Shown here one piece after another: positions 1,271 to 59,373 of a stretch of 64,000 bases of DNA. The DNA is taken from positions 2,542,001 through 2,606,000 of the forward strand of contig NC_089435.1 of the NCBI RefSeq assembly GCF_026210795.1, written 5' to 3'. The first letter of the stretch is position 1, and each line of letters begins with the position of its first letter. The position numbers and the translations under genes are program-made. Under the pieces are notes generated by a model. It saw only the letters and a program-made list of their open reading frames with translations. It searched no databases and was not told the origin of the DNA. The DNA is from Rhizophagus irregularis (lineage: Eukaryota).

Positions 1271-3701
1271 TAGATATTTTTAGTCTGGTATTTTTACATA
1301 TATATAGACCTGTAATTAGATCTGTAGTTGAATGAAAAATTGAAGTTCAGTAGAAGAGTTTTCTTAATAAAAATGGTTCTAATGATTATATTGAATAAAC
1401 TGTTGCTTGAATTTAACGAAATATAAATTTGTTATCCTTTATTCGTGTTGGGAGTATATGCCGACGTACAGTGCTATACTACACGTCTGATTGAATTGTT
1501 TATTAAGTGTTTATACAAATAGTTTATTTATTGATTATACCCGCCTACCTATATACCTTCTGTTTACCCTTTTCCATTTGTTTACGTTTGTAAACGCTAA
1601 AGAACTGGCTATAACAATATTTTGGGAGTCAGGATCCACGTGAAATCCTTATTTTCCGTAAATAGTAAAGATTCACGTGGATCCTTCCCCACCTCAACGG
1701 ATCTTTGGAATTAAAAAGTTTAAAGAATCCCTAAGGATAGGAAAGAATCCTTAGAGACATTTATTTAATTTTTATTAATAGATTATTTATTGATTTTTAT
1801 TAAAATCTATTTATTAATTTATATATTTAATGTGTATTTATTTATCTCTAATATTATTGTATATATTATGTATTTCTCCAGTTAATAAAAATAAAACAAT
1901 AATTTAATATAAAATACAAAAACAACTAATAAATAAAGTTAAAAAAAAATAATAATTCAAGTTTCACAATGAAACTTATCACTTTTCCTTAATTCTTCTG
2001 TTGATATTCGCCGCTAAGAAAGAGTGATTGGTTATGATCGCGTTGGAACATATTTTTAAATAAAGTTTGATAAGGAATTTCAAATTTATTGTTTACATAA
2101 TACTACCCAGACAACCTAAAAAAAATTAAACATTATTTAACGCTTTTATTAAAAAGGAAACAATTGAAGTTTCGCAATGAAACTTACCTATTATTAAATT
2201 ATTTTCTCTCTAATCGATACCCCAAATCATGGTAAAATGTCAATAGCGTCATCTGATTTTGAAGCAGGAGGGTTATCGATCCTAATTGCTTGCATGGCTT
2301 TTACAATATTCAGGTGATTTCCAATTGAAAAAGTATCAATCTGTTCGTGGATTTTACTAATAGCTGATCTATAGCCAGCGATAGTATTCCCCTATTGAAA
2401 CCTACTTGTCTATAAAAAAAAGAAAAAGATTGAAACGTTAATAAACGTTTCATTAAAATAAATAATTCAAATAAGCCTTCACTCACCAAGTTCCCACACG
2501 TCTAAAGAAATCAAAAGAAATGGCCATCTAAAAAGAAAAAAAATCAAATGTTAGTAGATATTTCGCTACAGTAAAATAAAAATTTAAATAATTCATCACC
2601 AGTTTCTAATGCGTTAATGACCCATCCCATCTAAAGAAAAGAAAAAATTGAATTTTTTGTTTTCAATACACTTGTTGAAATAACTTGTAGTGCGTTGTTA
2701 ACAGGTCCGTCTCAAACTCTGTCAACTATAACTAAACGTTAGGGAGTCAATAGCTATAACGTAGTTTATATCAGCAAGACACGCAAAAACACAATACGCA
2801 AAATATAACACAATCACAGTTCGTTTTTAATATAAGAGTTTATTAAATAGTTAATACAAGTTAATCCCTAACTTATACTATCTATTTTCTATCTATCTGA
2901 CACACTGACACACACTTTAACTTAAGAAAAAAATCAAAAGATATTTATATAAAAATAAAATATAAAGAAAATAATATAACTAAAATAAATAAAGTAAATA
3001 AAATAAATGTAATAAATAAAAGAAATAATAAAAATAATAAAAATAACATAAAATAATATAAATAACAAAAATAACAATTGTAACGTTAATCAGATCTACA
3101 AAATTATTTGATTACATAATGATTGATCTACTAATTAATCATCTGATTTTTGAATCTCATGATTTTTACTGCGCCATAATCTTCGTTATCAGCGTGTCTG
3201 ATACTGAAATTAATCTGAAAGATGTCATCTTCGATATCTTTTTTCCTTTGCCGTTATTCTGTAAGTATTTTACGTCCAGAGATACTTAAAAAAGAAACGT
3301 CTAAAAAAAAAATGAAAATGAGCAGTTAGTAATGCTCGTTAATATAAAAAAATCTGAAATAACTTCTTTTTTTGCTTACCGGTATCCAAGTTAAAAAAAC
3401 ACCTAAAAAAGAAAAAAAAATGAACATTTAGTATTTGTCAAAATAAAAAAAATTGAAACAAATTTTTCATGAAACTTACTGGTATCCCACATCAAAAAAA
3501 AATTCCTAAAAAAGAAAAAAAAAATGAACAATTAGCAATGTTCGTTAAAATAAACAAAAGAAAAAAAAATTCTTACTTACCAGTACTTCACGTCCAGAAA
3601 AACTTGAAAACTGCCTAAAAAAAAGAAACAAAATAAACAGTTAATAGTGTTCGTTAATATAAAAAATAAAAAAAAAAATTTTTTCTTACCTTACTTAACG
3701 G

Positions 3702-4807
3702 TGAGATCCCCCAATTCCCTCTGTCATCAATTTACAGAGTTGCCACATCGAACGGGCATTCTCATGGTCGAACGAACGAATAAACGAATGAACGAACAAT
3801 TAAACGAACAAGTAATTAATCAGCGACATAATTAACAAACAACATAATCAACGAACAACATACAACAACATATAACAACAACATTCTTGGTTTACAAAAT
3901 AAATAGCGTTAGTAATATAAAACGTTGAACGATATAAAATAAAATTAACTTCTCTAAATTTTCCCCAAATTATATCCACTTTTACCTTTAATTTCAAACT
4001 TCAATAGCTCTCGCTACGAATTATTACTTTTCAAAACATATATTTAATTCATCTTAAAATTTTCATTTATTTAATTAAAATTAATTAAGCGAACATTAAT
4101 TAAAGTTTAGGGCGAACCTATTACCTTCAATTAATATTAAACTTTACTAACAAATAATTAAATGAAACTTATATTTTTATTGAGTTCTGTGGATGAGAAC
4201 TATGGAATTACCTTGAATTCCGCTCTCTATATATACAATTTTTATGCTACTTTCTATTCTATCTATATACTATCTTTTATGTTCTTTTTACATATTATCT
4301 TTGAACTATCTTTCTAATATACTATCTATATTTTAAATACGCTATCTTTTAATATGCTATCTTTTAATATGCTATCTTTTTATATACGTTCTTAATATAT
4401 TATCTTTTACGTTCCATCTTTATACTATCTTTTTATATTATCTTTTACATTATTTTGTGTTCTTTAATCTTTCTGACATTATTTTATATGTTCTTTTAAT
4501 TCGCTTTATGTGTTTTGCTTATAATCTATCTTTTGTGGCTTATAATTATTCTTTCTTATCGTTCTTATTGTTAAAGATTGCTAAGCCGCAATTGATCGAC
4601 TCTATTTATCCTATTGGTTCTTTGTCAATCATTTGATAAATATTACATCATGTAGATCATTACTCTTCCTAAATGTTTATCCTTTTCGGCTAATTATTTA
4701 TCCATCTACGCCAATCCACGATTAATTTGTTCGTTCTTAATATTTAATAATTACATTTGGTGGTTGAATTTTATCATCTTTTCGTTCTTGATATTTGACC
4801 GTTTACA
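3702..4807. mobile_element. Probable solo LTR (TG...CA)
   Basis: ACGG duplicated at 3698-3701 and 4808-4811; removal restores an exon-like unit of the host array. Confidence 0.5.
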
Positions 4808-4970
4808 ACGGTCCCACATTAAAAAAGACTCAAAAACCACCTAAAAAAATAAAATGAAGTTAGTAATGCTTATTAATATAAAAAAAAAATTAAAAAAAAA
4901 ATTTTTTTTTTATTTACCAGTCCTACGTCCAAAAAGACTCGAAAAACGCCTAAAAAAGGAAGAGAAATGA

Positions 4971-7558
4971 CATCAGTAAGTTAGGTCGGCATAAATCATT
5001 GTATTGAAAAGCACTGTAAAATTCGGCGCATTGATCATTGCAATGATTTATGCCAACAAAATACTAAACAATGCACCAATTATTCAGTGCAATGATCATT
5101 GTATTGGAAAGTGCATTGATTACTGTGACATAATTCAGCACCTTGATTAGTGTTAAAAGTTTCAGTGCGAATCTGTGACACAAAATTGCAAAGTTTATTT
5201 ACCTAACTTTAAGTTTATTTTTTATTAAGTTTATTTAGGTATATGGCTTCTTTCTTCGAAGCTGAAGTTTATTTTGCTTCAGTTTCAGTATTATTACTTT
5301 ATGATTTATCTTTTTATTTTTTTTATTGCTCATACTAATTATGTTTTTTTCTTAACATTCAAACATAGAAATAACATGAAACTTACCCTTCACATTTCAA
5401 GTCCAAGAAACTGTCTATAAAAGAAAATAAAAATAGAACGTTAATTAACGCTCTTAAAGTAAAAAAAAATTAAAAATCTAAAAAAGTAAGTCTCTTTTTT
5501 ATCCTTTTGTTTCTTTTAATTTTTTTAATTTCCCTTTGTTGATTGCGTTTTTTTTTGTAGAAATGGATTGATAATTTGAAAATAGTTCCGATCGGTGGTA
5601 TTACTAGTCATATGACTTATGGCCAAACCGATTTAAATAATCTTTTTTTAAGAGTTTTAAGAAAATTTTTTCTTTTTTATTTTAGGTAGGGAACTCAGAG
5701 TGAAAACGGGATATTAAGGTATTTTTATTAATATTATTTTATTTATCATTATTTTTTTAGGAATGAAATTGACTTTTTCTTTTCATTTAGGAACAGTTCT
5801 TTGGCAGATTTCCTAGACTTTCTGAAAAGATAAGTGTTTTTTTGGAGTGTATGATAGCGTAATGGCATTAGGAAACAATACTAACCCCATTTTTTTTATT
5901 CTTTTAGGTCCTTGAACACTTCTGAACGCTTCCTGGAATACAGATTTGAAGGTAGGCAGGTGTGTGCTGTGTATTGGTGTTAGAAAACAATACTAACGCC
6001 TTTTTTTTATTCTTTTAGATTCTTGGACGCTTCCTGGAATATAGATTCAAAGGTAGATAGGTATATGGTGTATATTTGCATTAGGAAACAATAATAATGC
6101 CTTTTTTTATTATTTTTTTAGGTTATTAGAAGCAAAATTTGCGGTAAGTTTCTTTGAGTGAATGCATGGTAGTTAATGGCGTTATGATAATATTAATACC
6201 TTTTATTTTTTTTAGATCGTTTGTTAGAATTGAACCAACTGGGACTATGACCAAACCATTAACAACAGGTAAAAATGGTAGAATATTTCTATTTTTTTTT
6301 AAAGAAGCGTTATATTAACATTTCTTTGTATTTTGTAGGTTCTTCTGGCTTCCCTTTACCATTGGATTCCTAGTAGGTATTTTGAAGTCAATTTTGATTT
6401 TTTTTTTGAAGTGCTATATTAACACTTTTTCTTTGTATTTTGTAGGTTTCTTTCAGCTTTTGGCATTGGATATTTGGATATCAGGTAGGCTTTAAAGACG
6501 AAAATTTGTTTTTTATTATTTTTTTTGAAGTGTTATACTAACACTTCTTTTATATTTTGTAGATTTCGTTCGGCATTGGATACTGAATACCGAGTATGCT
6601 TTAAAAACGAAATTTTTTTTATTATTTTTTTTTGAAATATTAACTAATACTTCTTATATATTTTGTAGGTTTCTGCTTCAATATTTGGCTGCTCATGTGG
6701 TAAGTTTCTGGAAATTAATTTCAAAATTATTTATTTATTTTTTTTAAAAGAAACGTTTACTAACGTTTCATTTTTTCTTTTTTACTCGGTATAGATTTCA
6801 GCTTTGCATTTAGGTGTTAGATTTTTGGTAAGTTTTGAAGTTATATCATAACTTTAAAACTATTTGTTTTTTTTAAAAGAATCGTTTTATTAACATTTCT
6901 TTTTGTTTTTTCTTGTAAGAGCCAATTTTGAATTTAGCTTAAGTTTGGAAGAAAGCAATTTATTATGACACCATAGTCCCGTTCAGGTGTCTTTTTTAAA
7001 AATTTCAATTTTTTTTTTTTTAATATCAGATAAATTTTTTTATTAAATTTTTTTTATTTTAGGAACGATTCAGCTCGGCAATTTCTTGGAATGGATATTT
7101 CTTGTAAGACTTGTGAGTTTTAGGAAGGATTTTTTTTAAAAATCTTAATGAAAACGTTATTAAATTAATGTTTCTATCTTATTTTATTTTTAGGAACGGT
7201 AGATTTCTTGAAATGGGACTTATCATTATTTACAATAATGTGAGTTTCAGGGGATAATTTAAATTAAATATATACTATAATAGACAGTTAGGTATATGAA
7301 AATAAAATAAATACAGTAAAATAAATAAATTAATTAATTAATAAATTAATAAATAAATAGAATAAAATGAAATTAAATAAATAAATTAAATAAAAAAATC
7401 TGTGCAATGATTTATGCGATGTAAATAAAACAGTGCGTTGATTGATGCTATTTTTCAACGCGCTGTTCTGTGTTGCCTTCGTAGAATCACATGATTTCAC
7501 GCTGATCTGTGTTGGCATAAAACAATGCGCAGTTTTATGCGCACTTAACTTACTGATG
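4971..7558. mobile_element. Non-autonomous TIR DNA transposon (CMC/CACTA-like) carrying a + strand multi-exon array
   Basis: TIR CATCAGTAAGTTA / TAACTTACTGATG, 2-bp TSD GA, subterminal repeats; empty site aaatgaacagttag matches the host intron pattern. Confidence 0.75.
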
Positions 7559-16679: not shown

Positions 16680-19600
16680 TTATGAAAACTAATATTCAAG
16701 TAGTTTCAACTTGCCTGAACAACTTTCAATTAATAAATAAAGTTGATTTCATTTGCCCAAAGTGGAAATATTACGCTATAAATTAAAAAACAGAAAAGAG
16801 AGTTAATATCATCAAGAAAAATGCAATTTTCTCTGAGCACTACACCTACATTCATGAAAATTAATATTCAAGTGGTTTCAACCTGCCTGAACAACTTTTA
16901 TTTAATAAATAAAGTTGATTTCATTTGTCTAAAGTGGAAATATTACGCTCTAAATTAAAAAACAGAAAAGAGAGTTAATATCATCAAGAAAAATGCAATT
17001 TTCTCTAAGCACTACACCTACATTCATGAAAATTAATATTCAAGTTGTTTTAACCTGCCTGAACAACTTTCAATTAATAAATAAAGTTGATTTCATTTGT
17101 CTAAAGTGGAAATATTACGCTCTAAGTTAAAAAAACAGAAAAGAGAGTTAATATCATCAAGAAAAATGCAATTTTCTCTAAGCACTACACCTACATTCAT
17201 GAAAATTAATATTCAAGTAGTTTCAACCTGCCTGAACAACTTTCAATTAATAAATAAAGTTGATTTCATTTGTCTAAAGTGGAAATATTACGCTCTAGAT
17301 TAAAACACAAAAAAGAGAGTTAATATCATCAAGAAAAATGCAATTTTCTCTAAGCACTACACCCCAATAAAAAGTTTATGTTGGGTTTTTGTAAAAAAAA
17401 CGTAAGATAAGTTAATATAACAAATTTAGTACAATTATGAGCATCCATTTGTACAATATCTGTAATGTTTTCGTATGGTATTTGAAATAAATTTGTTATA
17501 AACATGCATTATTTTTATATAGTATTTGAAAGTAATTTATTATAAATTTGCAATAGACTTGCACTTTATATGGTTTATTCTTCTAAATTTAAAATATAAT
17601 AATCTATTAAACTCGCTTTTTTTTGGCTTGTGCTATTGACCAGAGGTGGCAATGCTGATGTCTGAAATTATGTTTTCAATGTTATTCAAAATTCTAATAT
17701 TGTAGTAGGCTATGTACTTATTATACCAGTAATTTTACAGCTGACATATTCGAAGATTTTGTGATAAACTATCAAGAATAATATACACATGTATAGAATC
17801 CATAAGAGAGGTGCTGGTAGGAGGGTTATCTGTTTGAGAAGGGGAAGCTGTATCAACCAAAGAGTCAGGGTTGGTTTCGGAAGTGATAAAAGTGTTAGTA
17901 ATCGTATTAAGGAGGATGAGGAGCTGTAGAGTTATTGTCAGCATCATAGAGTCATTAGTGCGGGCTCTACATCAAACTTGAAAAGGATATGGAAAATTCT
18001 AGCAAATTAGAACTTTATGAACTAATAAAATTAAACAAATTAAAGCAATTTGTACCTTACCATTATGAACTTCTAACCAATTAAGGGAGTTTGGTTAACT
18101 TTAAAAGGTACAGTTGCTAGAATTGGCTCTTATCCCGCCTAAGTCTCTTAAGGAAATGGTTACTTCTAAGGTTATAGGTATGGAGTTCCGATCCAAAACC
18201 ACATTCTGAAAAAAAAAATTACTTTGGAAAGATGCTTTGATATGAATATAGAGATAAATGTGATTAATCAAAAGTGATTATGAAGATTTTGACATTGAAG
18301 CTGATGATTAATATGAAGTTAAAAATTTTAATAAAATTCATATTAAAACGTGTCTTAAAACATAAGCAATAAAAGTTATAAATAAAATTATTTAAATAGT
18401 ACATACCTCAAAAAAAAATTTTTATATTCATATTGGTGTATCAATTTTCGGATTATGTCATATATGTCGTTATAAAAAATAGAAATTATGGAAGGGATGA
18501 AATGAACCTATGAAAAAGGAAAATGAGATGTGTAAGATATTTAAAAAAATAAAAAAAAAGATGTGTGAAAAGAGAAAGTAAGTCGCATTAAAGGGGAGGA
18601 ATAAAACAAGACGCGTAAAAAAGGGAGGAATAAAACAAGACACGTAAAAAAGGGAGAAATAAAATAAAGACGCGTAAAGTAAGAAGAAATAGAATCAAGA
18701 TGTTTAAAAAGGGGAGGAATAAAATCAAGAAAATCAAGATGCGTAAAAAAAGGAGAAATAAAATAAAGACACGTAAAGAAAGAAGAAATAAATCAAGATA
18801 TTTAAAAAAGGAATAAAATCAAAAAATCAAGACGCATAAAAAAAAGAGAAATAAAATAAAGAAATGTAAAATAAAAAGGGAAAATAAAACAAGATATACA
18901 AATAAGAGAAATAGAGAAATAAACAAAACATGTAAGAAGGGAGAATAGATACTTAAAAAAGATAAAAACGCGTAAAAAAGGAGAATAGAAAGCAGGGAAT
19001 AAGATAACATAAGAAAAAGGAAAGAATAGTATAATGCATAAAAGAATACGGTAATAAGATGCATAAGATGCACAAAGTAAGGGTGATAGAGATGTGTAAA
19101 TAAATATTTGTTATTTACGTACTTCAAATTAAACGAAGTATATCATTACTATTTTAAGTTAAGTATTCCAAGTTTACCGAACTTCAATCTAAAATTGAAG
19201 TAAACAAAATAAAATTTTTTTTAAGAACTTTTTCTTTAACACAAATTTCAAACAAATTTAGAAATCATACAAATTTTGTTTATTAAATGTCATAAATTTT
19301 AATAAATCTTACAATAATTATACGTTTAAACTTTATAAAAAAATAAAAAATGTTTAAATATAACAAATACTATACGAAAATTAGACAATTATTACAAAAA
19401 CTAAACAAAAACCATATGAATTTTATACGAAGACTTTTTACTGGGCACCTACATTCATGAAAATTAATATTCAAGTTGTTTTAACCTGCCTGAACAACTT
19501 TCAATTAATAAATAAAGTTGATTTCATTTGTCTAAAGTGGAAATATTACGCTCTAAGTTAAAAAACAGAAAAGAGAGTTAATATCATCAAGAAAAATGCA

Positions 19601-20575
19601 ATTTTCTCTGAGCACTACACCTACATTCATGAAAATTAATATTCAAGTAGTTTCAACCTGCCTGAACAACTTTCAATTAATAAATAAAGTTGATTTCATT
19701 TGTCTAAAGTGGAAATATTACGCTCTAAATTAAAAAAACAGAAAAGAGAGTTAATATCATCAAGAAAAATGCAATTTTCTCTAAGCACTACACCTACATT
19801 CATGAAAATTAATGTTCAAGTTGTTTCAACCTGCCTGAACAACTTTCAATTAATAAATAAAGTTGATTTCATTTGTCTAGAGTGGAAATATTACGCTCTA
19901 AATTAAAACACAAAAAAGAGAGTTAATATCATCAAGAAAAATGCAATTTTCTCTAAGCACTACACCTACATTCATGAAAATTAATGTTCAAGTTGTTTCA
20001 ACCTGCCTGAACAACTTTCAATTAATAAATAAAGTTGATTTCATTTGTCTAGAGTGGAAATATTACGCTCTAAATTAAAACACAAAAAAGAGAGTTAATA
20101 TCATCAAGAAAAATGCAATTTTCTCTAAGCACTACATCTACATTCATGAAAATTAATATTCAAATGGTTTCAACCTGCCTGAACAACTTTCAATTAATAA
20201 ATAAAGTTGATTTCATTTGTCTAAAGTCGAAATATTACGCTCTAAGTTAAAAAACAGAAAAGAGAGTTAATATCATCAAGAAAAATGCAATTTTCTATGA
20301 GCACTACACCTACATTCATGAAAATTAATATTCAAGTAGTTTCAACCTGCCTGAACAACTTTCATTTAATAAATAAAGTTGATTTCATTTGCCCAAAGTG
20401 GAAATATTACGCTCTAAATTAAAAAACAGAAAAGAGAGTTAATATCATCAAGAAATGCAATTTTCTCTAAGCACTATACCTATATTCATGAAAATTAATA
20501 GTCAAGTGGTTTCAACATGCCTGAACAACTTTTAATTAATAAATGAAGTTGATTTCATTTGGCCAAAGTGGAGAT
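16680..20575. repeat. 172-173-bp tandem repeat (about 4 + 6.5 copies) split by a transposon
   Basis: Unit cacctacattcatgaaaattaat...ctaagcacta at 16843, 17015, 17188, resuming at 19446. Confidence 0.92.
17363..19445. mobile_element. Non-autonomous CCC...GGG TIR transposon (CMC-like)
   Basis: TIR CCCAATAAAAAGT / ACTTTTTACTGGG; 3-bp TSD CAC; the tandem repeat resumes exactly after it. Confidence 0.85.
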
Positions 20576-24222: not shown

Positions 24223-27200
24223 TTAATTTTCGTCTGCTTTAATATCTAAATAATTAAATATTAAATAAAATTAATTCACATAAATAATTTGCAAGATTAA
24301 TTCTTTTATATATCATAGTACATACCTAATGACCCCAGACCCTTAATTATATAATCATTCAAATCTTCACTTACTAGCATTTCATTTGCTTTTACACTAG
24401 CTTGTGAATTTTCACTTTCAGGAATTTCATTCAACTTTTTACTAGTATTCTCATCTGAATAATTAAATTAAATTAATTAATTTCATATAAATAATTTGCA
24501 AGATTAATTTTTTATATATTATAGTATATACCTAATGACCTCAAATCTCCTCTAATTACACAATCATTCAAATCTGAATGACTTGCATGATATGCTTGTG
24601 AATTTTCATTTTCAAGAATTTCATTCAATTTTTTACTAGTAAAATCAAGTAAGCGACTTGTAAAACATGCTTTAGGATGAGATTTAGTAGCAAGATTGTT
24701 ATGCCCAATTGGTGCATTTATAAATTCCATAATGTTGCTTTTTAATTCTTCACTGACTTCATTATCATAATGATGGAATTCACGGAAAATCCATGTTGCA
24801 ATAATTTCTGATACTTCTTCTGAAGATGGTCTTTTTAATGGATCTTCATTCCAACATTTTTTCATTAAATCTACATAACATTGTGGAGTATTTTCAATAA
24901 TTTTAGGACGTTCACCTTTACAAATACTTAAGCTAAGTTGAAGATCATGTGCTCTATTATTAAATGGTGGTATTCCAGATGTAAACTCCCACATAATCAT
25001 AGAAAAACTATATATATCACTAGCTGGAGTATAAGATTTGCCTCTTAAAATTTCAGGAGCCATAAATGATATAACACCATAAATATCATATTTTTCCAAA
25101 AACGATTTTACAGGTTGACATAATCCTAAATCACTAATATAAATTTTATCCTTATTCTTATTATCATCATGATTTAAAATATTACCATCATGAAAATCAC
25201 AATGAATAAGATTTTCTTTATGTATCTTACTAAGTCCAGAAATAATTTCATACAACATATATAATTTTTGATTCCAATTATTTTTGACTATACTTGTTAA
25301 ATTTTCTCTTAAATTACCTTTATTTGCATAATCCATTACTACCATATATTTCGATGTATTTGGATCTTTTGTGAATCCATAAAAATTTATAATATTGATT
25401 GAACTTAAAACACTTGTATGATATTCCCACTATAAACAATAATAATAATTTATTAACATAAATAAATTTAAATTTAAATTAAAAATAGAAAATAATATAC
25501 TATCATACTTCTTTCAAAAATTCATTTAAATTTTCATTTAAATTCTTATGACATTTAAGTATTACTTCTCCAACTCCATTTGACCAATTAGCTTTGTATA
25601 TAGTACCAAATCCTCCTTCATTAAGATATTCAACATTTTTAAATTTGTTATAAGGAATCCATTTTAATTCTTTTTTAAGAACAAAATCATCTATAATTGA
25701 ATTTCCACTTTTCCCAAATCTATAAATTTAAATAGTTAATATACTGTAGATTGTATTATAATTTATACAAAATAAATTATTACTTACTCTAAAATTTAAA
25801 TAGGGATTTAATGAAATATAAGTCTTAATTTTTAGATAAATACATATAATAATCTATGACTTACAACTTACCGACTAAAGTAATGGATATTTTTCGAATA
25901 AAAGAATTCAGTTAACAAATAAATATTATATAAAATATATAACAATAGAGACACTTACAAGCTAGATCATAAATAATTTAAGAAATTAGTTAGTTACATT
26001 ATATGTACTAAATATTATAATAATAAGTAATAATAGAATTAAATAAATAACTTACCATCTATAAAATAATTTTTTAAATAAAGAAATTAGTTGGTTTAAA
26101 TTATATGTAAATATTGTAATAATGAGTAATAGTAGAATTAAATAAATAACTTACGAACTATATTATTTAATAATTTTTAAATAAAGAAATTAATTAGTTT
26201 AAATTATATGTAAATATTATAACAATAAGTAATAAAAGAATTAAATAAATAACTTACGAACTATATTATTTAATAATTTTTTAAATAAAGAAATTAATTA
26301 GTTTAAATTATATGTAAATATTATAAATATTACAACAATAAGTAATAATAGAATTAAATAAATAACTTACTATCTATAAAATAATTTTTTAAGTAAAGAA
26401 ATTAATTAGTTTAAATTATATGTAAATATTATAACAATAAGTAATAATAGAATTAAATAAATAACTTACCATCTATAAGATAATTTTTTAAATAAAGAAA
26501 TTAATTAGTTTAAATATTATAACAATAAGTAATAATAAAATTAAATAAATAACTTACACCCTACATTATTTAATAATTTTTTAAATAAAGAAATTAGTTG
26601 GTTTAAATTATATGTAAATATTATAACATAAGTAATATTAGAATTAAATAAATAACTTATGACTTACCAACTAAAATAAATAACAAAATAATTTTTTAAA
26701 TAAAGAAATTAGTTGGTTTAAATTATATGTAAATATTATAACAATAAGTAATAATAGAATTAAATAAATAACTTACCATCTATAAAATAATTTTTTAAAT
26801 AAAGAAATTAATTAGTTTAAATATTATAACAATAAGTAATAATAGAATTAAATAAATAACTTACACCCTATATTATTTAATAATTTTTTAAATAAAGAAA
26901 TTAGTTAGTTTAAATTATATGTAAATATTATAACAATAAGTAATAATAGAATTAAATAAATAACTTACCATCTATAAAATAATTTTTTAAATAAAGAAAT
27001 TAGTTAGTTTAAATTATATGTAAATATTATAACAATAAGTAATAATAGAATTGAATAAATAACTTACACTCTATATTATTTAATAATTTTTTAAATAAAA
27101 AAATTAGTTAGTTTAAATTATATGTAAATATTATAACAATAAGTAATAATAGAATTAAATAAATAACTTACCATCTATAAAATAATTTTTTAAATAAAAA

Positions 27201-30200
27201 AATTAGTTAGTTTAAATTATATGTAAATATTATAACAATAAGTAATAATAGAATTAAATAAATAACTTACCATCTATAAAATAATTTTTTAAATAAAGAA
27301 ATTAGTTAGTTTAAATTATATGTAAATATTATAACAATAAGATAAAATAATTTTTTAAATAAAAAAATTAGTTAGTTTAAATTATATGTAAATATTATAA
27401 CAATAAGTAATAATAGAATTAAATAAATAACTTACCATCTATAAAATAATTTTTTAAATAAAGAAATTAATTAGTTTAAATATTATAACAATAAGTAATA
27501 ATAAAATTAAATAAATAACTTACACCCTATATTATTTAATAATTTTTTAAATAAAGAAATTAGTTAGTTTAAATTATATGTAAATATTATAACAATAAGT
27601 AATAATAGAATTAAATAAATAACTTACTCTCTATATTATTTAATAATTTTTAAATAAAGAAATTAGTTAATTTAAATTATATGCAAATATTATAATAATA
27701 AGTAATAATAGAATTAAATAAATAACTTATGACTTACCAACTAAAAAAATTATAAAATAATTTTTTAAATAAAGAAATTAGTTGGTTTAAATTATATGTA
27801 AATATTATAACAATAAGTAATAATGGAATTAAATAAATAACTTACTCTCTATATTATTTAACAATTTTTTAAATAAAGAAATTAGTTAGTTTAAATTATA
27901 TGTCCCTATAAAAAATAAATGTCCAGAAAATGTCTACGAAAATGTCTGGAAATTGTCCAGAATAAATCTGACATATCCAGAAATTGTCCGGAAAATGTCT
28001 ATTGTTTGCTACAAATTTGATACCTAAAATTTTGACATATCCGGACTTTGTCCAGAATATATCCAGAATTTGTCCAGTATAAAATTTTGGACAAATTCCG
28101 GACAGATAAACCCAGACAAATTCCGGACATAGTAAAAATTCAGATAATTTGAACTGGACAAATTCCGGACATGAAAAAATTCTGGACAAATTCTGGACGC
28201 TACTTCCAAAAAAGGATAAATTAATTTTGTAAAAAAAATGCAAAAATCACAAGACTGACATTCATAACCTCCTTTGTCATACTAATTAAATTTGCTAAGC
28301 AGGCAAAAATACTATATATCTATGATATAAAACTTTAGGTTAAAAGCAATTATAATGATGGCCACCTGTTGATCATCTTTTTGTGAAAATTTTATGAAAA
28401 AATATTTCAGGTCAATTTCCGGACAAATTCTGGACAAAATGAGTGTCCGGAAATGAGTGTGTTTTCGGAACAATTTCTGGACATGGTACCTGGCATTTTC
28501 TGGACATTTTCTGGACAATTATTTAGACAAATTTGCCGGACAATTTCTGGACAATTTCCGGACTCTTATTTTTTATAGGGTGTAAATATTATAACAATAA
28601 GTAATAATAGAATTAAATAAATAACTTATGACTTACCAACTAATAAAATTATAAAATAATTTTTTAAATAAAAAAATTAGTTAGTTTAAATTATATGTAA
28701 ATATTATAACAATAAGTAATAATAGAATTAAATAAATAACTTACTCCCTATATTATTTAATAAATTTTTAAATAAAGAAATTGGTTAGTTTAAATTATAT
28801 GTAAAATAAGAAATAATAGAATTAAATAAATAACTTATGACTTACCGACTAAAAAAATTATAAAATAATTTTTTAAATAAAAAAATTAGTTAGTTTAAAT
28901 TATATGTAAATATTATAACAATAAGTAATAATAGAATTAAATAAATAACTTACTCCCTATATTTTTTAATAATTTTTTAAATAAAGAAATTGGTTAGTTT
29001 AAATTATATGTAAAATAAGTAATAATAGAATTAAATAAATAACTTATGACTTACCAACTAAAAAAATTATAAAATAATTTTTTAAATAAAGAAATTAGTT
29101 AGTTTAAATTATATGTGAATATTATAACAATAAGTAATAGAATTAAATAAATAACTTACTATCTATAAAATAATTTTTTAAATAAAGAAATTAGTTAGTT
29201 TAAATTATATGTAAATATTATAACAATAAGTAGTAATAATAGAATTAAATAAATAACTTACCATCTATAAAATAATTTTTTAAATAAAAAAATTAGGTAG
29301 TTTAAATTATATGTATATATTATAACAATAAGTAATAATAGAATTAAATAAATAACTTACAATCTTTAAAATAATTTTTAAATAAAGAAATTAGTTAGTT
29401 TAAATTATATGTAAATATTATATCAATAAGTAATAATAGAATTAAATAAATAACTTACACCCTATATTATTTAATAATTTTTTTAAATAAAGAAATTAGT
29501 TAGTTTAAATTATATGTGAATATTATAACTAGGGATGGCAACGGTCATGGTCATTAACCGATTATGACCGGCCATGGCTGTGACTGATATTGGTTGGTCA
29601 AGACTTCTGACCGACTGTTTGACTGACCAAATTTTTTTATAAAGAATTTAATAAAAATGTCACGAAAACATTTTTATTAATAATTTAATTAAAAAAAACA
29701 TTTTCGCAAATGTTATTATTTTAACAAAAATGTTGTGAAATGTTTTTATTAATAATTTAATTAAAATAAAGCTTTTTCGCAACATTTTTTTAATTATTTT
29801 AATAGAAACGTTGCAAAAATGTTTTTTATTAATAATTTAATAAAAAAAAAAGTTTTCACACATTTTTTCAATTGCCTTAATAAAAACGCAGAAAAAAAAT
29901 GATCAGCCAAATGGTCAGTCAAACAGTCAGTCAGTCGGTCAAAGGTTCTTGACTGGTCATAACTGACCATTGACCGACCATGACTGACCGTTGCCATCCC
30001 TAATTATAACAATAAGTAATAACAGAATTAAATAAATAACTTACCATCTATAAAATAATTTTTTAAATAAAGAAATTAGTTAGTTTGAATTATATGTAAA
30101 TATTATAACAATAAGTAATAATAGAATTAAATAAATAACTTACTCCCTATATTATTTAATAATTTTTTAAATAAAGAAATTAATTAGTTTAAATTATATG

Positions 30201-33200
30201 TAAATATTATAACAATAAGTAATAATAGAATTAATTAAATAACTTACTCCCTATATTATTTAATAATTTTTTAAATAAAGAAATTAATTAGTTTAAATTA
30301 TATGTAAATATTATAACAATAAGTAATAATAGAATTAAATAAATAACTTACTCCCTATATTATTTAATAATTTTTTAAATAAAGAAATTAGTCAGTTTAA
30401 ATTATATGTAAATATTATAACAATAAGTATTAATAGAATTAAATAAATAACTAACGAGCTATATTATTTAAATAAAAAAATTAGTTAGTTTAAATTATAT
30501 GTAAATATTATGATAATAAGTAATAACAAAATTAAATAAATAACTTACGAACTATATTATTTAATAATTTTTTAAATAAAGAAATTAATTAGTTTAAATT
30601 ATATGTAAATATTATGACAATAAGTAATAATAGAATTAAATAAATAACTTACTCCCTATATTATTTAATAATTTTTTAAATAAAGAAATTAGTTAGTTTA
30701 AATTATATGTAAATATTATAACAATAAGTAATAATAGAATTAAATAAATAACTTACTATCTATAAAATAATTTTTTTAAATAAAGAAATTAGTTAGTTTA
30801 AATTATATGTAAATATTATAACAATAAGTAATAATAGAATTAAATAAATAACTTACCATCTATAAAATAATTTTTTAAATAAAGAAATTAATTAGTTTAA
30901 ATATTATAACAATAAGTAATAATAAAATTAAATAAATAACTTACACCCTATATTATTTAATAATTTTTTAAATAAAGAAATTAATTAGCTTAAATTATAT
31001 GTAAATATTATATCAATAAGTAATAATAGAATTAAATAAATAACTTATGACTTACCAACTAAAATAAATTACAAAATAATTTTTAAATAAAAAAATTAAT
31101 TAGTTTAAATTATATGTAAATATTATAACAATAAGTAATAATAGAATTAAATAAATAACTTACTCCCTATATTATTTAATAATTTTTTAAATAAAGAAAT
31201 TAATTAGTTTAAATTTTGTGTAAATATTATAACAATAGGTAATAATATAATTAAATAAATAACTTACTCCCTATATTAACCCAAAGATAAGATTTTCTGG
31301 TAATTTTTATCTTTAAGGGGAAAAAATTTTAGTCGATCATCCCATTTTGACCAGATTTTCGCCAAAATTTTCCCATTCCATTTTTAAAAATCACCACATG
31401 CACAGTTGCCGTGGATACGAAAAAAATTGCCTTTTTGGTAAAAAAGTCTCCAGTTAATCTTTATATTATTATGTACTTGTACATGTACATGAACATGAAC
31501 ATGAACATGAACATGAACATGTACAGTACATGTACATGTACAGAGAAAGTGAACATTCACTATGGAAACTTTTTGCGCTGAGTTTAACTGTGCTGCTCAA
31601 AAAGAATGTTAACTTGACAGATCATGAAATAGTATGTTGATCATTTTTTATTAAAATGTGAAAAAAAAAAAAATTTTTTTTTTTTAATCAAAAACGTCAA
31701 AAATTTGACGTTTTTGTGATTGAAAAATAAAAAAAAAATTGATTTTTTTTAATCAAAACGTCAGACTTGACGTTTTTGTGATTGAAAAATCAAAAATAAT
31801 TGATTTTTTTAAATCAAAAACGTCAAAATAATTGATTTTTTTAATCAACTTGACGTTTCTGTGATTAAAAAATCAAAAAAAAATGATTTTTTTAATCAAA
31901 AACGTCAGACTTGACATTTCTGTGATTAAAAAATCAAAAAAAAAATGATTTTTTTAATCAAAAACGTCAGACTTGACATTTCTGTGATTAAAAAATCAAA
32001 AAAAAATGATTTTTTTAATCAAAAACGTCAGACTTGACGTTTCTGTGATTAAAAAATCAAAAAAAAAATGATTTTTTTAATCAAAAACGTCAGACTTGAC
32101 GTTTCTGTGATTAAAAAATCAAAAAAAAATGATTTTTTTAATCAAAAACGTCAGACTTGACGTTTCTGTGATTAAAAAATCAAAAAAAAAATGATTTTTT
32201 TAATCAAAAACGTCAGACTTGACGTTTTTGTGATTAAAAAATCAAAAAAAAATGATTTTTTTTAATCAAAAGTCTGATGATTTTGTAATTAAAATCAAAA
32301 AAATTTGATTTTTATTAGCTAAAAACGTAAGACTTGACGTTTTTGTTATTAAAAATCAAGGAAGAATGATTTTTATTAGCTGAAAACGTCAGACTTGACG
32401 TTTTTGTTATTAAAAATCAAGGAAAATGATTTTATTAGCTAAAAACGTCAGACTTGACATTTTTGTTATTAAAAATCAAGAAAATTTGATTTTTATTAGC
32501 TAAAAACGTCAGACTTGACGTTTTTGTTATTAAAAATCAAGAAAATTTGATTTTTATTAGCTAAAAACGTCAGACTTGACGTTTTTGTTATTAAAAATCA
32601 AGAAAATTTGATTTTTATTAGCTAAGAACGTCAGACTTGACGTTTTTGTTATTAAAAATCAAGGAAAAATGATTTTTATTAGCTAAAAACGTCAGACTTG
32701 ACGTTTTTGTTATTAAAAATCAAGGAAAATGATTTTTATTAGCTAAAAACGTCAGACTTGACGTTTTTGTTATTAACAATCAAGGGAAAATGATTTTCAT
32801 TAGCTAAAAACGTCAGACTTGACGTTTTTGTTATTAACAATCAAGGGAAAATGATTTTTATTAGCTAAAAACGTCAGACTTGACGTTTTTGTTATTAAAA
32901 ATCAAGGAAAAATGATTTTTATTAGCTGAAAACGTCAGACTTGACGTTTTTGTTATTAAAAATCAAGGAAATTTGATTTTTATTAGCTGAAAACGTCAGA
33001 CATGACATTTTTGTTATTAAAAATCAAGGAAATTTTGATTTTTATTAGCTAAAAACATCATACTTGACGTTTTTGTTAGCTAAAAATCAAAAAAAATAGT
33101 GTACTTTTGTAAAAGTATACTAATAAATTAATAAAAGATTTTTTTATAACAATAGATTGTGTTTAGTGAGATTTATAAAAAAATTTAATGAGACTTTTTT

Positions 33201-36200
33201 TTAATAATAGTTTGGCATAAAAAAATTTTCTAGGATTTTCTTTTTTAATAATATAATGGTATAGTACAATAGATAGATATAATAAAATTTTCTGGGATTT
33301 ATTTTAATAACAATAGGTATGATAAAATTTTGATTTTTTTTTTAATATTAAACAATAGATTGGTATCATAGTACAATAGATTTATTTAATAAGTTTTTTG
33401 TGATTTTTTTAATAACAATAAATTGGTAATAACAATTATTAACTTATTAAGTTAATAATTGTTTTTTAGTAAAATTTTTTCCAGTAATACTAATACTACT
33501 AATAGGTAATAGATAACTTAATAAACTTTTATAAAATAGATTAAGATATATAAAAAAAATTTGAGATTTTTTTAACAATAGATTGGTACAATGAATAGAT
33601 ATAAAAAAATTTTCTGAATTTTTTTTTTAATAATAGATTGATATAAATATATTTTCTGAACTTTTTTTTTAACAATAGAGTCATTAGATCAATATAAAAA
33701 ATTTTTTGATAACAACAGATTGGTATGTTATAACTTATAATGGATAGATATAAAGAATTTTCTAAGGTTTTTTATTAATACAATAGATCAGTTTCTGGAA
33801 TTTTTTATGACAAATTAATTGGTATAGTACAAAAGATACTAGGTATAAAATTTCTTGGGATTTATTTTAATAACAATAGGTATGATAAAATTTTTGGTGA
33901 CTTTTTTTTAATAATAATAGATTGGTAATAGACAATTATTACTGCGACTAGTAATTATTGAAAACCAATCTGATTTGCCAATTCATTATCAGTTCAGTTT
34001 TTAATGTTTTTGCAACATTTTTTATTGTCTATTACCAATCTATTGTTATTAAAAAAAACACAAAAAATTTTATTAAATCAATCCATTGTACTATACCATC
34101 CATTGTACTATGATACCAATCTATTATTGTTATTAAAAAAAAAATAATCACCAAAAATTTAGCATACCTATTGTTATTAATATAAATCTCAGAAAATTTT
34201 ATTATATCTACTGTATCTATTGTACTATACCATTAAAAAAATCTTGGAAAATTTTTTTATTACTACTTATCAGTAATATTAGTGTTACTGTGAACTATAA
34301 AAAAAATCTTACTAAAAACAATTATTAACTTCAGTTAATAAGTTAATTGTCTATTACCAATATATTGTTATTAAAAAAAAATCATAGAAAATTTTTTTAT
34401 AAATCTCACTAACACAATCTATTGTTATAAAAAAATCTTTTATAAATTTATTAGTATACTTTCAAAACTAAACTCACTCACTATATCCAAAAGTACACTA
34501 GTTATTTAATAATTTTTTAAATAAAGAAATTAATTAGTTTAAATTATATGCAAATATTATAACAATAAGTAATAATAGAATTAAATAAATAACTTACTCC
34601 CTATATTATTTAATAATTTTTTAAATAAAGAAATTAATTAGTTTAAATTATATGTAAATATTATAACAATAAGTAATAATAGAATTAAATAAATAACTTA
34701 CTCCCTATATTATTTAATGATTTTTTAAATAAAGGAATTAGATAGTTTAAATTATATGTAAATATTATAACAATAAGTAATAATAGAATTAAATAAATAA
34801 CTTACCATCTATAAGATAATTTTTTAAATAAAGAAATTAATTAGTTTAAATATTATAACAATAAGTAATAATAAAATTAAATAAATAACTTACACCCTAC
34901 ATTATTTAATAATTTTTTAAATAAAGAAATTAGTTGGTTTAAATTATATGTAAATATTATAACATAAGTAATATTAGAATTAAATAAATAACTTATGACT
35001 TACCAACTAAAATAAATAACAAAATAATTTTTTAAATAAAGAAATTAGTTGGTTTAAATTATATGTAAATATTATAACAATAAGTAATAATAGAATTAAA
35101 TAAATAACTTACCATCTATAAAATAATTTTTTAAATAAAGAAATTAATTAGTTTAAATATTATAACAATAAGTAATAATAGAATTAAATAAATAACTTAC
35201 ACCCTATATTATTTAATAATTTTTTAAATAAAGAAATTAGTTAGTTTAAATTATATGTAAATATTATAACAATAAGTAATAATAGAATTAAATAAATAAC
35301 TTACCATCTATAAAATAATTTTTTAAATAAAGAAATTAGTTAGTTTAAATTATATGTAAATATTATAACAATAAGTAATAATAGAATTGAATAAATAACT
35401 TACACTCTAAATTATTTAATAATTTTTTAAATAAAAAAATTAGTTAGTTTAAATTATATGTAAATATTATAACAATAAGTAATAATAGAATTAAATAAAT
35501 AACTTACCATCTATAAAATAATTTTTTAAATAAAAAAATTAGTTAGTTTAAATTATATGTAAATATTATAACAATAAGTAATAATAGAATTAAATAAATA
35601 ACTTACCATCTATAAAATAATTTTTTAAATAAAGAAATTAGTTAGTTTAAATTATATGTAAATATTATAACAATAAGTAATAATAGAATTAAATAAATAA
35701 CTTACACTCTATATTATTTAATAATTTTTTAAATAAAAAAATTAGTTAGTTTAAATTATATGTAAATATTATAACAATAAGTAATAATAGAATTAAATAA
35801 ATAACTTACCATCTATAAAATAATTTTTTAAATAAAAAAATTAGTTAGTTTAAATTATATGTAAATATTATAACAATAAGTAATAATAGAATTAAATAAA
35901 TAACTTACCATCTATAAAATAATTTTTTAAATAAAGAAATTAATTAGTTTAAATATTATAACAATAAGTAATAATAAAATTAAATAAATAACTTACACCC
36001 TATATTATTTAATAATTTTTTAAATAAAGAAATTAGTTAGTTTAAATTATATGTAAATATTATAACAATAAGTAATAATAGAATTAAATAAATAACTTAT
36101 AACTTACGATCTTTTAAATAAAGAAATTAGTTAGTTTAAATTATATGTAAATATTATAACAATAAGTAATAATAGAATTAAATAAATAACTTACACCCTA

Positions 36201-37095
36201 TATTATTTAATAATTTTTTAAATAAAGAAATTAGTTAAATTATATAAATAATATAAATATAGATATCATATAACTTACACCCTGTAGTATTATTAATTAT
36301 TAATTAGTTAAATATAAAGATAATATAAAAGTATTTACTGTAAATTATATATATTACTTACAATCTAGTAGTTATTTAAATTAAGAATATAATTAGTTGA
36401 ATTATGTAAAATATTAAACAAATAAATATAATATATATATTGTAACTTACCATCTGTAATATAATTAATTATTAAATAGTTATTTAAACAAAGAATTTAG
36501 TTAATTGAATGTTATGTAGAATAAATAATTAAAGGAATAAAGATTTAAATAACTGATAACTTACCAACTACAGTATTATTAATCATTAAATAAATTATTT
36601 AGTTATATGGAATACAATAAAAATAATGAGTAATTCATTATATTAACTTACAAGCTAAATATTTAATATAATTTTTATATAAAATAGTTAGCCTAAATAG
36701 TATTTGAATTGTTTATAAATAAAAATTTAATATTTTAGCTTGTTTGATATACCTTTAGGTTCTCCAGTGCCACTTCCTTCAAATTCCTTGATGCTACTTC
36801 TTTCAAATTCTTCAGTGCCACTTTCTTCAAATTCTTCAATATTTCTGGAAACTAGTTTTATTATATTGGAAAATTTGGTTTAATTATATTTGATTATTTA
36901 TAATTAAGTTTTCTTAATAAATAAAAATCTTAATATTTCAATTTTGTTTTGTATACTATATTTACCTTCAGGTTCTTTGGTATCACACAAAACTAGTTTT
37001 ATTATATTGCAAGTTTGTTTTAATAATTTTGAATAATCCTAATTTATATTACTATTCATGTTATATGCTTTACCTTTACCAATACGTTGGCCCAT
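24223..37095 (-). CDS. Tyrosine-kinase-like protein kinase with about 72 exons, including 64 3-nt microexons and one 1-nt exon
   Basis: Exons 37095-37074 (MGQRIGK), 36992-36966, 36851-36753, microexons 36654-25872, 25788, 25719-25509 (GGFG, VILK), 25429-24532 (HCDFHDGN, DLG, MAPE), 24454-24326, 24245-24223 (stop); all GT-AG, continuous frame. Confidence 0.85.
27904..28580. mobile_element. CCC...GGG MITE (copy 1) in an array intron
   Basis: TIR CCCTATAAAAAATAA; 3-bp TSD TGT; internal tccgga/ctggac repeats. Confidence 0.92.
29530..30002. mobile_element. hAT-type MITE in an array intron
   Basis: TIR TAGGGATGGCAACGGTCA; 8-bp TSD ATTATAAC. Confidence 0.93.
31279..34501. mobile_element. 3.2-kb composite non-coding insertion (possibly Helitron/Helentron-like)
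   Basis: Array unit resumes exactly after it; left hairpin, (CATGAA)n, minisatellite, foldback 33097-34500, ends CTAG; possible TTA duplication. Confidence 0.7.
31680..33090. repeat. 60-62-bp minisatellite with internal palindrome aaaacgtca-gact-tgacgtttt
   Basis: About 23 copies in two sequence subtypes, switching near 32290. Confidence 0.92.
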
Positions 37096-38386: not shown

Positions 38387-40196
38387 GGGAATTGCTAAAC
38401 ATCACCTGGGCGATTGTCGCCTGGGTTTTTTTGTTCAAATATGTCACATGATTTACCATATATACAGAGTAAATTTATTAATCGGCTGACGGCTGATTTT
38501 TTCAACTTAGTTAATTTTTGATCGGCTAAACTTAAAATTTTATCTCAAAAGATATTTTAAAAAAAATTTTTTTGCAAACATATTTATTCAAAATAATCTT
38601 ATCTAATGAAATTTTATTTGCAAATATTAAAATTTAAATCACACATTTACGATTTTAAAGAAAAAATCACTATTTATTTTTAATGAAGTGATACTATAAA
38701 AGAAAGATATTAAGTAAATTACAATGATCAAGAAGAAAGATGCTAATAAAAAAATGAAATAACAATGAAGTAATGGAAAGTAATAGAAGATGAAAGGGAG
38801 TAAAAAAGAGTAATATGAATTGATAGGAAACAAAAGGAGTAATAGGACATGACCCTATAAAAAATAAATGTCCGGAAAATGTCTACGAAAATGTCCGGAA
38901 ATTGTCCAGAATAAATCTGGCATGTCCAGAAATTGTCCGGAAAATGTCTATTCTTTGCTACAAATTTGATACCTAAAATTTTGACATATCCGGACTTTGT
39001 CCAGAATATATCCAGAATTTGTCCAGTATAAAATTTTGGACAAATTCCGGACAGATAAACCTGGACAAATTCCGGACATGAAAAAATTCTGGACAAATTC
39101 TGGACGCTACTTCCAAAAAAGGATAAATTAATTTTGTAAAAAATTGCAAAAAGCACAAGACTGACATTCATAACCTTCTTTGTCATACTAATTAAATTTG
39201 CTGAGCAGGCAAAAATACTATATATCTATGATAAAAAACTTTAGGTTAAAAGCAATTATAATGATGGTTACCTGTTGATCATCTTTTGTGCCAAATTTTA
39301 TGAAAAAATATTTCAGGTCAATTTCCGGACAAATTCTGGACAAAATGAGTGTCCGGAAACGAGTGTGTTTTCGGAACAATTTCCGGACATGGTACCTGGC
39401 ATTTTCTGGACATTTTCTGGACAATTATTTAGACAAATTTTCCGGACATATTCTGGACAATTTCCGGACACTTATTTTTTATAGGGTGATGGGAGATGAA
39501 AAGGAGTGATAGGAGGATGAAGAGAAGTGATGGAAGACGAAATGGAGCGATGGGAAGATGAAAAGAAGTGATGGGAAGATGAAGAGGAGTGATGGGAGAC
39601 GAAAAGGGTGATGAGAGACAAAAAAAGTTATGAGAAAATGAAGAGGAGTGGTGGGAGACGAAAAAGAGTTATGAGAGACAAAAAGAAATGATGGGAAGTA
39701 AACAGGAGAGAAAAAGAAATAATGGAAAACGAAAAGATGTAATAGAAAAAAATGAAGTTAGTAAGAAACGAAATATAAGATAGAAACAAAATAAAAAAAA
39801 ATAAATAAATAAAAAAAATATTTTTATTTAATTGTAGAACCGAAAGAACTAAAAGATCTAAAAAAAAATGAAATAAAATTAGTTAAAAATGAAATATGAA
39901 ACAGAAACAAAATAAAAAAAAATAAAAAATAAGAAACGAAATGTAAAGTGAAAAACAACTGAACCTTAATTGCAGAACCGGAAGGACTAAATAATGAAAT
40001 AGAGTTAGTAAGAAACAAAGTGTAAGAATGTAAGTTAGAAATAAAAATAATAGAAAAAAAGAAAAATACCTCGAGACCGAAAGAACCAAGGAAACGAACC
40101 TCGAGCCTATAATTAAAGTAATCATGTGGCCAATCTGGGCAATCAAAAATATTAAATCTGCCGCGTGATCGACCCAGGCGATGTTTTAAAATTCCC
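38387..40196. mobile_element. Mutator (MULE)-like non-autonomous element
   Basis: Imperfect TIR GGGAATTGCTAAACATCACCTGGG / CCCAGGCGATGTTTTAAAATTCCC; 9-bp TSD AATATAATT. Confidence 0.75.
38853..39486. mobile_element. CCC...GGG MITE (copy 2), nested in the MULE
   Basis: Near-identical to 27904-28580 with about 43 bp missing; 3-bp TSD TGA. Confidence 0.92.
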
Positions 40197-58566: not shown

Positions 58567-59373
58567 TTAAAAACTTACATCAACTTTTTTCAATCTGGGA
58601 GGCGTAGGATAAGTATTAAATATATCATTGATGCATTTGTGAACAGCATATACATCACTTTCCATAATTCCCCACAAAGTTGGACCTAATAACGGGTTTT
58701 CATTTACAGGCAATCCAATATATTTATGAGATATATAAAGAACAGAACTTGCAATCTCTTTTGAAGTATAATAAAGACAAAACGGATGATTATAAGTTTG
58801 ACTAATTATTAGGCTTGCCATTCTTATTAAAATAATTTTTTTCTTTTCAGTGATAATAATATCGGATGAATTCTCAAGAAAGTCCACCACATGAATATGT
58901 GGTAAATCAACATCGAAATCGAAACATATTTTTTCCGCTAGAACTTTTTCTTTATTAATGATAATTTTAATCCACTTTGTAAATTCATCAGCATCATAAA
59001 AATTATTATCACGTCGTATTACACGGGCGCAAGCAACGGCAACATAATCAATTATACGAGGATGTTCTGTAGTTTTTGTCGCCAAAAAAGTAGCAGCGGC
59101 CCCAATGTCATGTTGTGTATAATCTTTAAAACTACAACGCATAAAAAATCTATGAAAATAAGTCGTCGCAGTTGCAATCGTTTGATGTTTCAAGCGAAGC
59201 CAAACGCTAATATTTTTAATAAATTGAATACCATCACTCCTCAATTTATTTTCTTCTTCCATAGAAATTCCATCGCAACGAGATGGTGTGAATTTGCCAT
59301 ATTGATTTTTGTCAAATTTCCATTGAGATTTAGAAATGTCGTTCATACTTTTTTTTTGGAATAAAGAGTTCAT
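58567..59373 (-). CDS. Transcriptional cyclin (cyclin K/T/Pch1-like)
   Basis: TPSRCDGIS.EEE.KLR, TIATATTYFHRFFM, AATFLATKTTE, ICFDFDVDLPH. Confidence 0.9.
   Translation of the reverse strand: MNSLFQKKSMNDISKSQWKFDKNQYGKFTPSRCDGISMEEENKLRSDGIQFIKNISVWLRLKHQTIATATTYFHRFFMRCSFKDYTQHDIGAAATFLATKTTEHPRIIDYVAVACARVIRRDNNFYDADEFTKWIKIIINKEKVLAEKICFDFDVDLPHIHVVDFLENSSDIIITEKKKIILIRMASLIISQTYNHPFCLYYTSKEIASSVLYISHKYIGLPVNENPLLGPTLWGIMESDVYAVHKCINDIFNTYPTPPRLKKVDVSF

Follow-up and report, generated by a model that had tools for sequence, protein, structure and literature searches.

The window analysed here is a stretch of 64,000 nucleotides (nt) of the Rhizophagus irregularis genome (NCBI RefSeq assembly GCF_026210795.1, contig NC_089435.1, positions 2,542,001 to 2,606,000 of the forward strand), and the coordinates given below are counted from its first letter. 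On its minus strand lies a kinase gene in which 64 exons of 3 nt and one exon of 1 nt follow one another consecutively. The gene opens with exon 1 (37074..37095), which carries the start codon of a protein beginning MG and ends in phase 1, followed by exon 2 (36966..36992; 27 nt, phase 1-1) and exon 3 (36753..36851; 99 nt, phase 1-1), which encodes acidic E/G/S repeats and stands immediately before the microexon array. The array (25872..36654) consists of the 64 three-base exons, of 13 triplet types, separated by introns of approximately 100 nt. It is closed by a single-base exon (A) at 25788, which leads from phase 1 into phase 2 of kinase exon 1 (25509..25719), where the FGKSGN motif, the Gly-rich loop and the catalytic Lys region are encoded. 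Kinase exon 2 (24532..25429) contains the HCDFHDGN, DLG and APE motifs and belongs to PF07714, with a Pfam score of 118 bits for the kinase exon at a cut-off of 23.1. The gene ends with a C-terminal exon of 129 nt that was assigned by hand (24326..24454) and a predicted final coding exon with the stop codon, read by hand from the sequence (24223..24245). Summed by hand, the array accounts for 192 of approximately 1600 coding nt, or about 12%.

Two raw poly(A) RNA runs of one organism (X23 and X24) were aligned to the flanks of the array. Reads cross the joint between exons 2 and 3 (36851/36966; 16 reads in X23 and 29 in X24) and that between kinase exons 1 and 2 (25429/25509; 42 and 64 reads in the two runs), while loose ends of sister-copy RNA behind 36994/37001 continue into exon-1-like sequence. 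Near the C-terminal exon, RNA depth is present across 24300-24476 and approximately zero across 24477-24535.

Organization and reading frame of the array

Exactly 64 units, in which three bases are preceded by [TCA]AG and followed by GT[AT]AGT, run along the minus strand from 36654 to 25872. Outside the array this pattern has a single match on each strand of the window, and a unit pattern gave no match in viral contigs or in prokaryote genomes. When exon lengths from 0 to 9 nt were scanned across the array span, 64 of the 67 matches were 3 nt long, with one match each at 1, 2 and 5 nt. AG and GT are intact in all 64 units; the introns have a median length of 101 nt and a minimum of 80 nt, and 59 of 63 contain CTAAY within 70 nt of the acceptor. 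The sole GTTAGT donor belongs to the CTC exon at 30456-30458, whose inclusion may be weaker. Three classes of unit can be told apart by their flanks: class A is mostly ATG, class B mostly GGA or GGT and class C mostly TTG. The introns of units 1-5 (CTT, TTG, ATG, ATT and GGT; 36279..36654) are older and diverged, unlike the near-identical introns of the middle. The final three units (ATG, CTT and TCG) lie at 25872..26058.

Because the exon upstream of the array ends in phase 1, each codon of the array is split 1+2 between neighbouring exons. This split-codon, phase 1-1 design was put forward in the original prediction, which was made from the DNA letters, and it is borne out both by the phase-1 end of exon 3 and by sister-copy RNA in which units are joined in genomic order at each end of the array. 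A phase-0 reading (M/G/I/L-rich, as in the gene models) was ruled out because exon 3 ends in phase 1 and the RNA contains the 1-nt exon. In the split-codon frame, the segment is predicted to be 64 residues long and free of stops, with 13 Tyr and nine each of Asp, Arg and Gly. Shuffled arrays have a mean of 6.3 Tyr (P=0.0003 for 13). We do not read this excess as selection because only five junction types supply all 13 Tyr, two of them 10, and most are supplied by duplicated dimers and blocks.

None of the triplets begins with AA or GA, 17 of the 64 end in T, and all five that begin with AG are preceded by a G-ending unit. The original prediction had these counts, like that of Tyr, right, and took the placing of the AG units as modest support for selection against T/AG stop junctions. 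The permutation test does not support such selection: a stop-free order was obtained in 21.6% of 100,000 shuffles (P=0.216), with P=0.31 if the second copy of a duplicated nine-unit block is left out and 0.15 if the exit junction is included. The five cases represent two junction types only, and the chance that 13 random triplet types lack AA and GA starts is 0.14; the gene models of paralogues suggest that GA- and AA-starting triplets occur there. It was also wrong to regard T/AG as the only possible stop, since a T-ending unit in last place, joined to the 1-nt exon, gives T/A/A, that is, TAA.

This exit junction also qualifies the claim that any unit can be skipped without loss of the frame. 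All of the exons are symmetric and 63 of 64 single skips are free of stops, but unit 64 is required: without it a T-ending unit precedes the 1-nt exon and TAA results. Of 2080 possible contiguous skips, 65 produce a stop, and omission of all 64 units is likewise in frame. When random skipping was simulated at 10% per exon, 1.6% of molecules contained an internal stop. Approximately 10^16.6 distinct triplet subsequences are possible. These properties would suit combinatorial splicing of the kind seen in truffles, in which the near-identical middle introns would be skipped in various ways, new residues would be created at the skips and each nucleus would command a large isoform repertoire. Working against such splicing, simulated skipping at 30% and 50% places stops in 10% and 18% of molecules even before the exit junction is counted, and T/AG junctions are not depleted beyond chance. 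We regard it as possible but unlikely.

Transcript evidence at the two ends of the array

At the kinase end, 205 and 262 sister-copy reads in the two runs match the genome as far as 25719 and diverge from it precisely there. In the direction of the gene, their consensus is ATG-CTT-TTG-A, against ATG-CTT-TCG-A in the window, and a single A separates the final triplet from the kinase exon. In the window this A (25788) is flanked by AG and GTAAGT; the frame into the kinase exon (25719) is open with the 1-nt exon and meets a stop soon afterwards without it. The 1-nt exon is kept in two of three fetched loci, L001 (81% protein identity) and L002 (70%; an ATT unit lies upstream), and the distant locus L003 (56%) has no intron at the site. 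The 5-nt form implied by gene models is not the RNA form. Public models P0019, P0024, P0002, P0050 and others start with MSKFG or read NLEFG here, as would be produced by extension of the 1-nt exon by GTAA or by intron read-through; this would amount to a systematic annotation error in the family.

At the exon 3 end, 18 reads of X24 give CTC-TTG-ATG-ATT-GGT, corresponding to CTT-TTG-ATG-ATT-GGT in the window, with an agreement of 0.95 across a stretch made up of the end of exon 3 and units 1-5. For comparison, agreement at the ordinary exon 2/3 junction is 0.97-0.98. The same five-unit order is found in X23 (30 reads, agreement 0.83), and the CTC variant of unit 1 is also present in DNA run X1 at 36652. 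By triplet frequency alone, the chance of matching units 2-5 is 1.5e-4. Two records of the RNA contig run X15 were also aligned. X24 also yields another RNA form (36 reads, agreement 0.85), which begins TTG-ATG, without the first unit. We weakly favour a different gene copy over skipping as its source because its exon 3 differs too and one X1 DNA contig skips 36604-36706, a span containing the first unit (the letters between are not known).

In sister copies, then, the units at both ends of the array are real exons. For the array as a whole we favour, with moderate confidence, the reading that the 64 units are spliceosomal exons, mostly fully spliced into a low-complexity segment of Tyr, Asp, Arg and Gly, which changes chiefly through duplication, deletion and point mutation of the DNA. 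Each intron of about 100 nt would be recognised singly through its strong signals (intron definition); a 3-nt exon would then need no exon definition, and full inclusion would be the default. In one sister gene, the RNA points to dominance of the fully included form at the 5' end, because an agreement of 0.95, if it is a per-letter value, permits at most approximately 19-38% of reads with one skip in units 1-5.

That margin is itself one of several points that weigh against full inclusion. The value of 0.95 carries little information on unit 5. Units 1-5 lie in old, diverged introns, and the middle units may behave differently. RNA support covers units 1-5 and the last three, with units 6-61 outside. 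The transcripts are those of sister copies, most reads being 90-95% alike at the kinase end and less than 95% alike at the exon 3 end, and the closest DNA run shares 0.68 of the words with the window allele. Agreement at the kinase end is 0.59-0.60 over 30 letters, which fits pooled paralogues and also skipping; because it is low and most reads are 90-95% alike, we conclude that many copies are pooled there. Finally, the truffle precedent is alternatively spliced: in the excerpted reports, nank genes of Tuber melanosporum carry alternatively spliced arrays of tens of codon-sized exons (PMC4986451, PMC3689799, PMC13449251, PMC10197012). The low 3' agreement and this precedent both speak for combinatorial splicing, whereas the in-order form that dominates at the start of the array in one sister gene and the fact that the RNA differences are explicable by different gene copies speak against it. 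Such splicing is neither shown nor excluded.

The restriction of RNA support to the array ends could also mean that the window holds an overgrown copy, which is poorly processed or uses only its old end units, the middle being effectively one long intron. Reads at least 99% alike are few (14 and 13 at the kinase end, 18 and 22 at the exon 3 end), and there are RNA reads on the edge of the intronic repeat at 26009-26050. The repeat-edge reads, however, combine the signal of numerous units from numerous copies, AG and GT are kept in all 57 core units, and the kinase frame and motifs are intact. We consider this explanation very improbable.

Change of the array in the DNA

The order of the units is dominated by block and dimer duplications. 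A block of 1194 nt is present twice, at 34502..35685 and 26163..27349, with 97.5% identity and nine triplets in the same order in both copies. The copies differ at 13 sites and by six gaps, and coverage of the repeat unit is high in DNA run X1 and in X5 (a summed depth rather than a copy number); an assembly artefact is unlikely. Array introns also hold three insertions and one clean unit deletion. An inverted-repeat element occupies 27904..28580, in an intron of 788 nt. This non-coding element and its second copy (38853-39486) have inverted ends, CCC/GGG, and are flanked by duplications of 3 bp, TGT and TGA; the element resembles a PIF/Harbinger-type miniature inverted-repeat transposable element. 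A second inverted-repeat element (29530..30002) has an 8-bp target duplication and, from that length, is presumably hAT-like. The 3.3-kb intron at 31271..34597 contains a 61-bp tandem array of approximately 20 copies (31848-33096), then approximately 1.4 kb of nested inverted repeats. The deletion, which was read by hand, removed one exon with its donor and acceptor to leave an intron of 162 nt (27274-27435), with the frame preserved. The original prediction had proposed both DNA-level and splicing-level diversification. Unequal crossing-over or tandem duplication finds support in the duplicated block and in the differences among paralogues; for combinatorial splicing, the one read test, at the 5' end of one sister copy, points to the included form.

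Variation among units was counted by column for 56 of the 57 core units, arranged in three flank classes that we defined, with one odd unit omitted. Extra alleles numbered 9 in 9 exon columns, 75 in 202 intron columns and 1 in 24 splice-signal columns. Exon positions were more variable than intron positions (p~0.01) and splice signals less variable (p~0.002), but these p-values should be taken as rough, given that the units are related to one another, that a few columns beside insertions are misaligned and that the classes are our own; the reservation extends to the reading we favour.

These counts bear on the view that the peptide is a neutral linker, a tolerated spacer that grew as a minisatellite does, with splice sites kept to avoid retention of an AT-rich, stop-bearing intron. 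The prevalence of block and dimer duplications would be expected of such a spacer, as would the origin of the Tyr residues in a handful of junction types, the in-frame omission of the whole array and the presence of three insertions within it; under intron definition, moreover, conservation of splice sites would need no function of the peptide. Exon positions more variable than the neighbouring introns are not expected from drift alone, and different copies have the end units and the 1-nt exon in common. We hold a purely neutral spacer to be improbable.

If the units are instead mostly fully spliced exons of a segment that evolves in the DNA, as we favour, the gain or loss of a whole unit would keep the frame and rewrite two codons. 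Each gene copy or allele would hence have its own peptide, set between a short acidic N-terminus and the kinase. We propose that this putative intracellular segment serves for copy-specific binding or phosphorylation and would set the choice of partner or substrate.

The kinase family and comparable systems

Searches with the kinase gave 1237 relatives at E<=1e-30 among 2249 candidates. The six best matches are 79-85% identical and carry a PF07714 kinase domain, and the organism-named matches among the 120 listed are all from Rhizophagus; we assign the gene to an expanded tyrosine-kinase-like family of Rhizophagus. Pfam analysis of the large exon, P0005 and P0012 detected kinase families only, and the two short window exons had no match. 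An N-terminus like that of exons 1-3 was found in P0032, P0005 and P0055. The MG start and a Lys at position 7 (37074-37095), together with a nearby Cys in some sister proteins, would be compatible with a possible lipid anchoring of the N-terminus.

At the position of the array, gene models P0012, P0005, P0017, P0076 and P0067 have dissimilar M/G/I/L/E-rich strings, which are probably phase-0 misreadings of different arrays. The motifs of the RNA-supported reading were found in none of 316 related proteins screened (drawn from 120 listed of 1237 matches, 6 matches of another search, 56 cluster members and 150 listed of 778 representatives), and no correctly spliced protein was seen among the 34 of 43 short matches that were read by eye. 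A loose upstream motif is present in 111 of the 316: it is directly preceded by SK in 11 and by [LI]E in 10, endings explicable by a misread 1-nt exon, while 70 show other forms, many of which come from unrelated kinases. Public models start at the region upstream of FGKSGN, misread it or run through introns before it. In models P0121, P0122 and P0123 the acidic module of exons 1-3 is fused to sequence of other origin, probably the result of gene predictors going astray within the array. In a metagenome scan, 234 candidate stretches yielded three loci, and a complete array was absent from all three.

Elsewhere in the window, arrays of a 172-bp repeat with 95% identity lie at 16682-17363 and 19446-20572. 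The minus strand at approximately 2900-7100 has many short exon-like pieces with GTAAG donors and repeats of approximately 100 bp (5926-6116 and 6462-6673), and possibly represents another small-exon gene. Long open frames are found at 60702-63023 on the plus strand (773 aa) and 58567-59418 on the minus strand (283 aa); from their motifs we take these to be calpain-like and cyclin-like, respectively.

The nank genes of the truffle, as far as they are described in the excerpted reports cited above, share with the Rhizophagus gene tens of 3-bp exons, an expanded family, a mycorrhizal fungus as host and a proposed role in signalling-protein diversity. The product here is a tyrosine-kinase-like kinase rather than a NACHT-ankyrin NLR, and we place the gene outside the nank group despite the same layout because it has no NACHT or ankyrin domain. 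The fungus is of Rhizophagus type rather than an ascomycete, the array is N-terminal, and a 1-nt exon closes it. Every codon here is split 1+2 (phase 1-1), which may set this array apart from those of the truffle. Extensive alternative splicing is reported in the nank excerpts; the agreement found here is 0.95 at the 5' end and, for pooled copies, 0.59-0.60 at the 3' end.

Micro-exon genes of Schistosoma mansoni, in the parts of the reports cited, encode secreted proteins with a signal peptide, have exons of 3-81 bp and long introns, and consist of up to 75% micro-exon coding sequence (PMC4015677, PMC10526429). They resemble the present gene, on that description, in their runs of symmetric tiny exons, in forming a multigene family and in allowing variation without frameshift. 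They differ in that all 64 exons here are 3 nt long, the introns are tandem copies of approximately 100 nt, the array contributes about 12% of the coding sequence, and the encoded protein is a kinase. On inspection, this protein begins with a short stretch of polar and acidic character, and a signal peptide is not evident.

Single-nucleotide exons have also been described, according to the portions of the papers cited, in Arabidopsis (PMC4674806) and in Fusarium CYP621A, where the exon bridges a phase-1 donor and a phase-2 acceptor, is conserved and is supported by RNA (PMC12940212). The exon at 25788 likewise bridges phase 1 to phase 2, is conserved in homologues and has RNA support. Unlike those described earlier, it is an A, follows a microexon array, is apparently family-wide in expanded kinases and belongs to another fungal lineage. 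A search of the open-access literature, made mostly by listings and without supplements, found no report of codon-sized exon arrays in Glomeromycota. What appears to be new is that the codons are split, that the host gene encodes a kinase, that the array occurs in this fungal lineage and that a 1-nt exon is shared across the family.

An expansion of tyrosine-kinase-like genes in R. irregularis has been reported, as far as the cited excerpt goes (PMC4219462, citing Tisserant et al. 2013). The job of these expanded Rhizophagus kinases is not known, and public models miss the region before the kinase domain of this subfamily. What is added here is a variable N-terminal segment that had been hidden, along with a 1-nt exon that is shared, both backed by RNA from sister copies; this corrects the annotation. 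The range of codon-sized exon arrays, known from truffle NLRs, now takes in a distant lineage of fungi and a different class of protein, and 64 successive 3-nt exons followed by a 1-nt exon are an extreme case of splicing. With the split-codon phase, a change of unit rewrites adjacent residues, beyond adding or dropping one. A bolder and doubtful proposal, which we advance tentatively, is that in arbuscular mycorrhizal fungi split codons serve to generate diversity in an expanded family of intracellular kinases: shuffling of the DNA would give every copy a microexon string of its own, skipping among the near-identical middle introns would create residues encoded by no exon singly, and the outcome would be a repertoire of variable sensor kinases at the level of the nucleus, which may serve in self/non-self or symbiont recognition.

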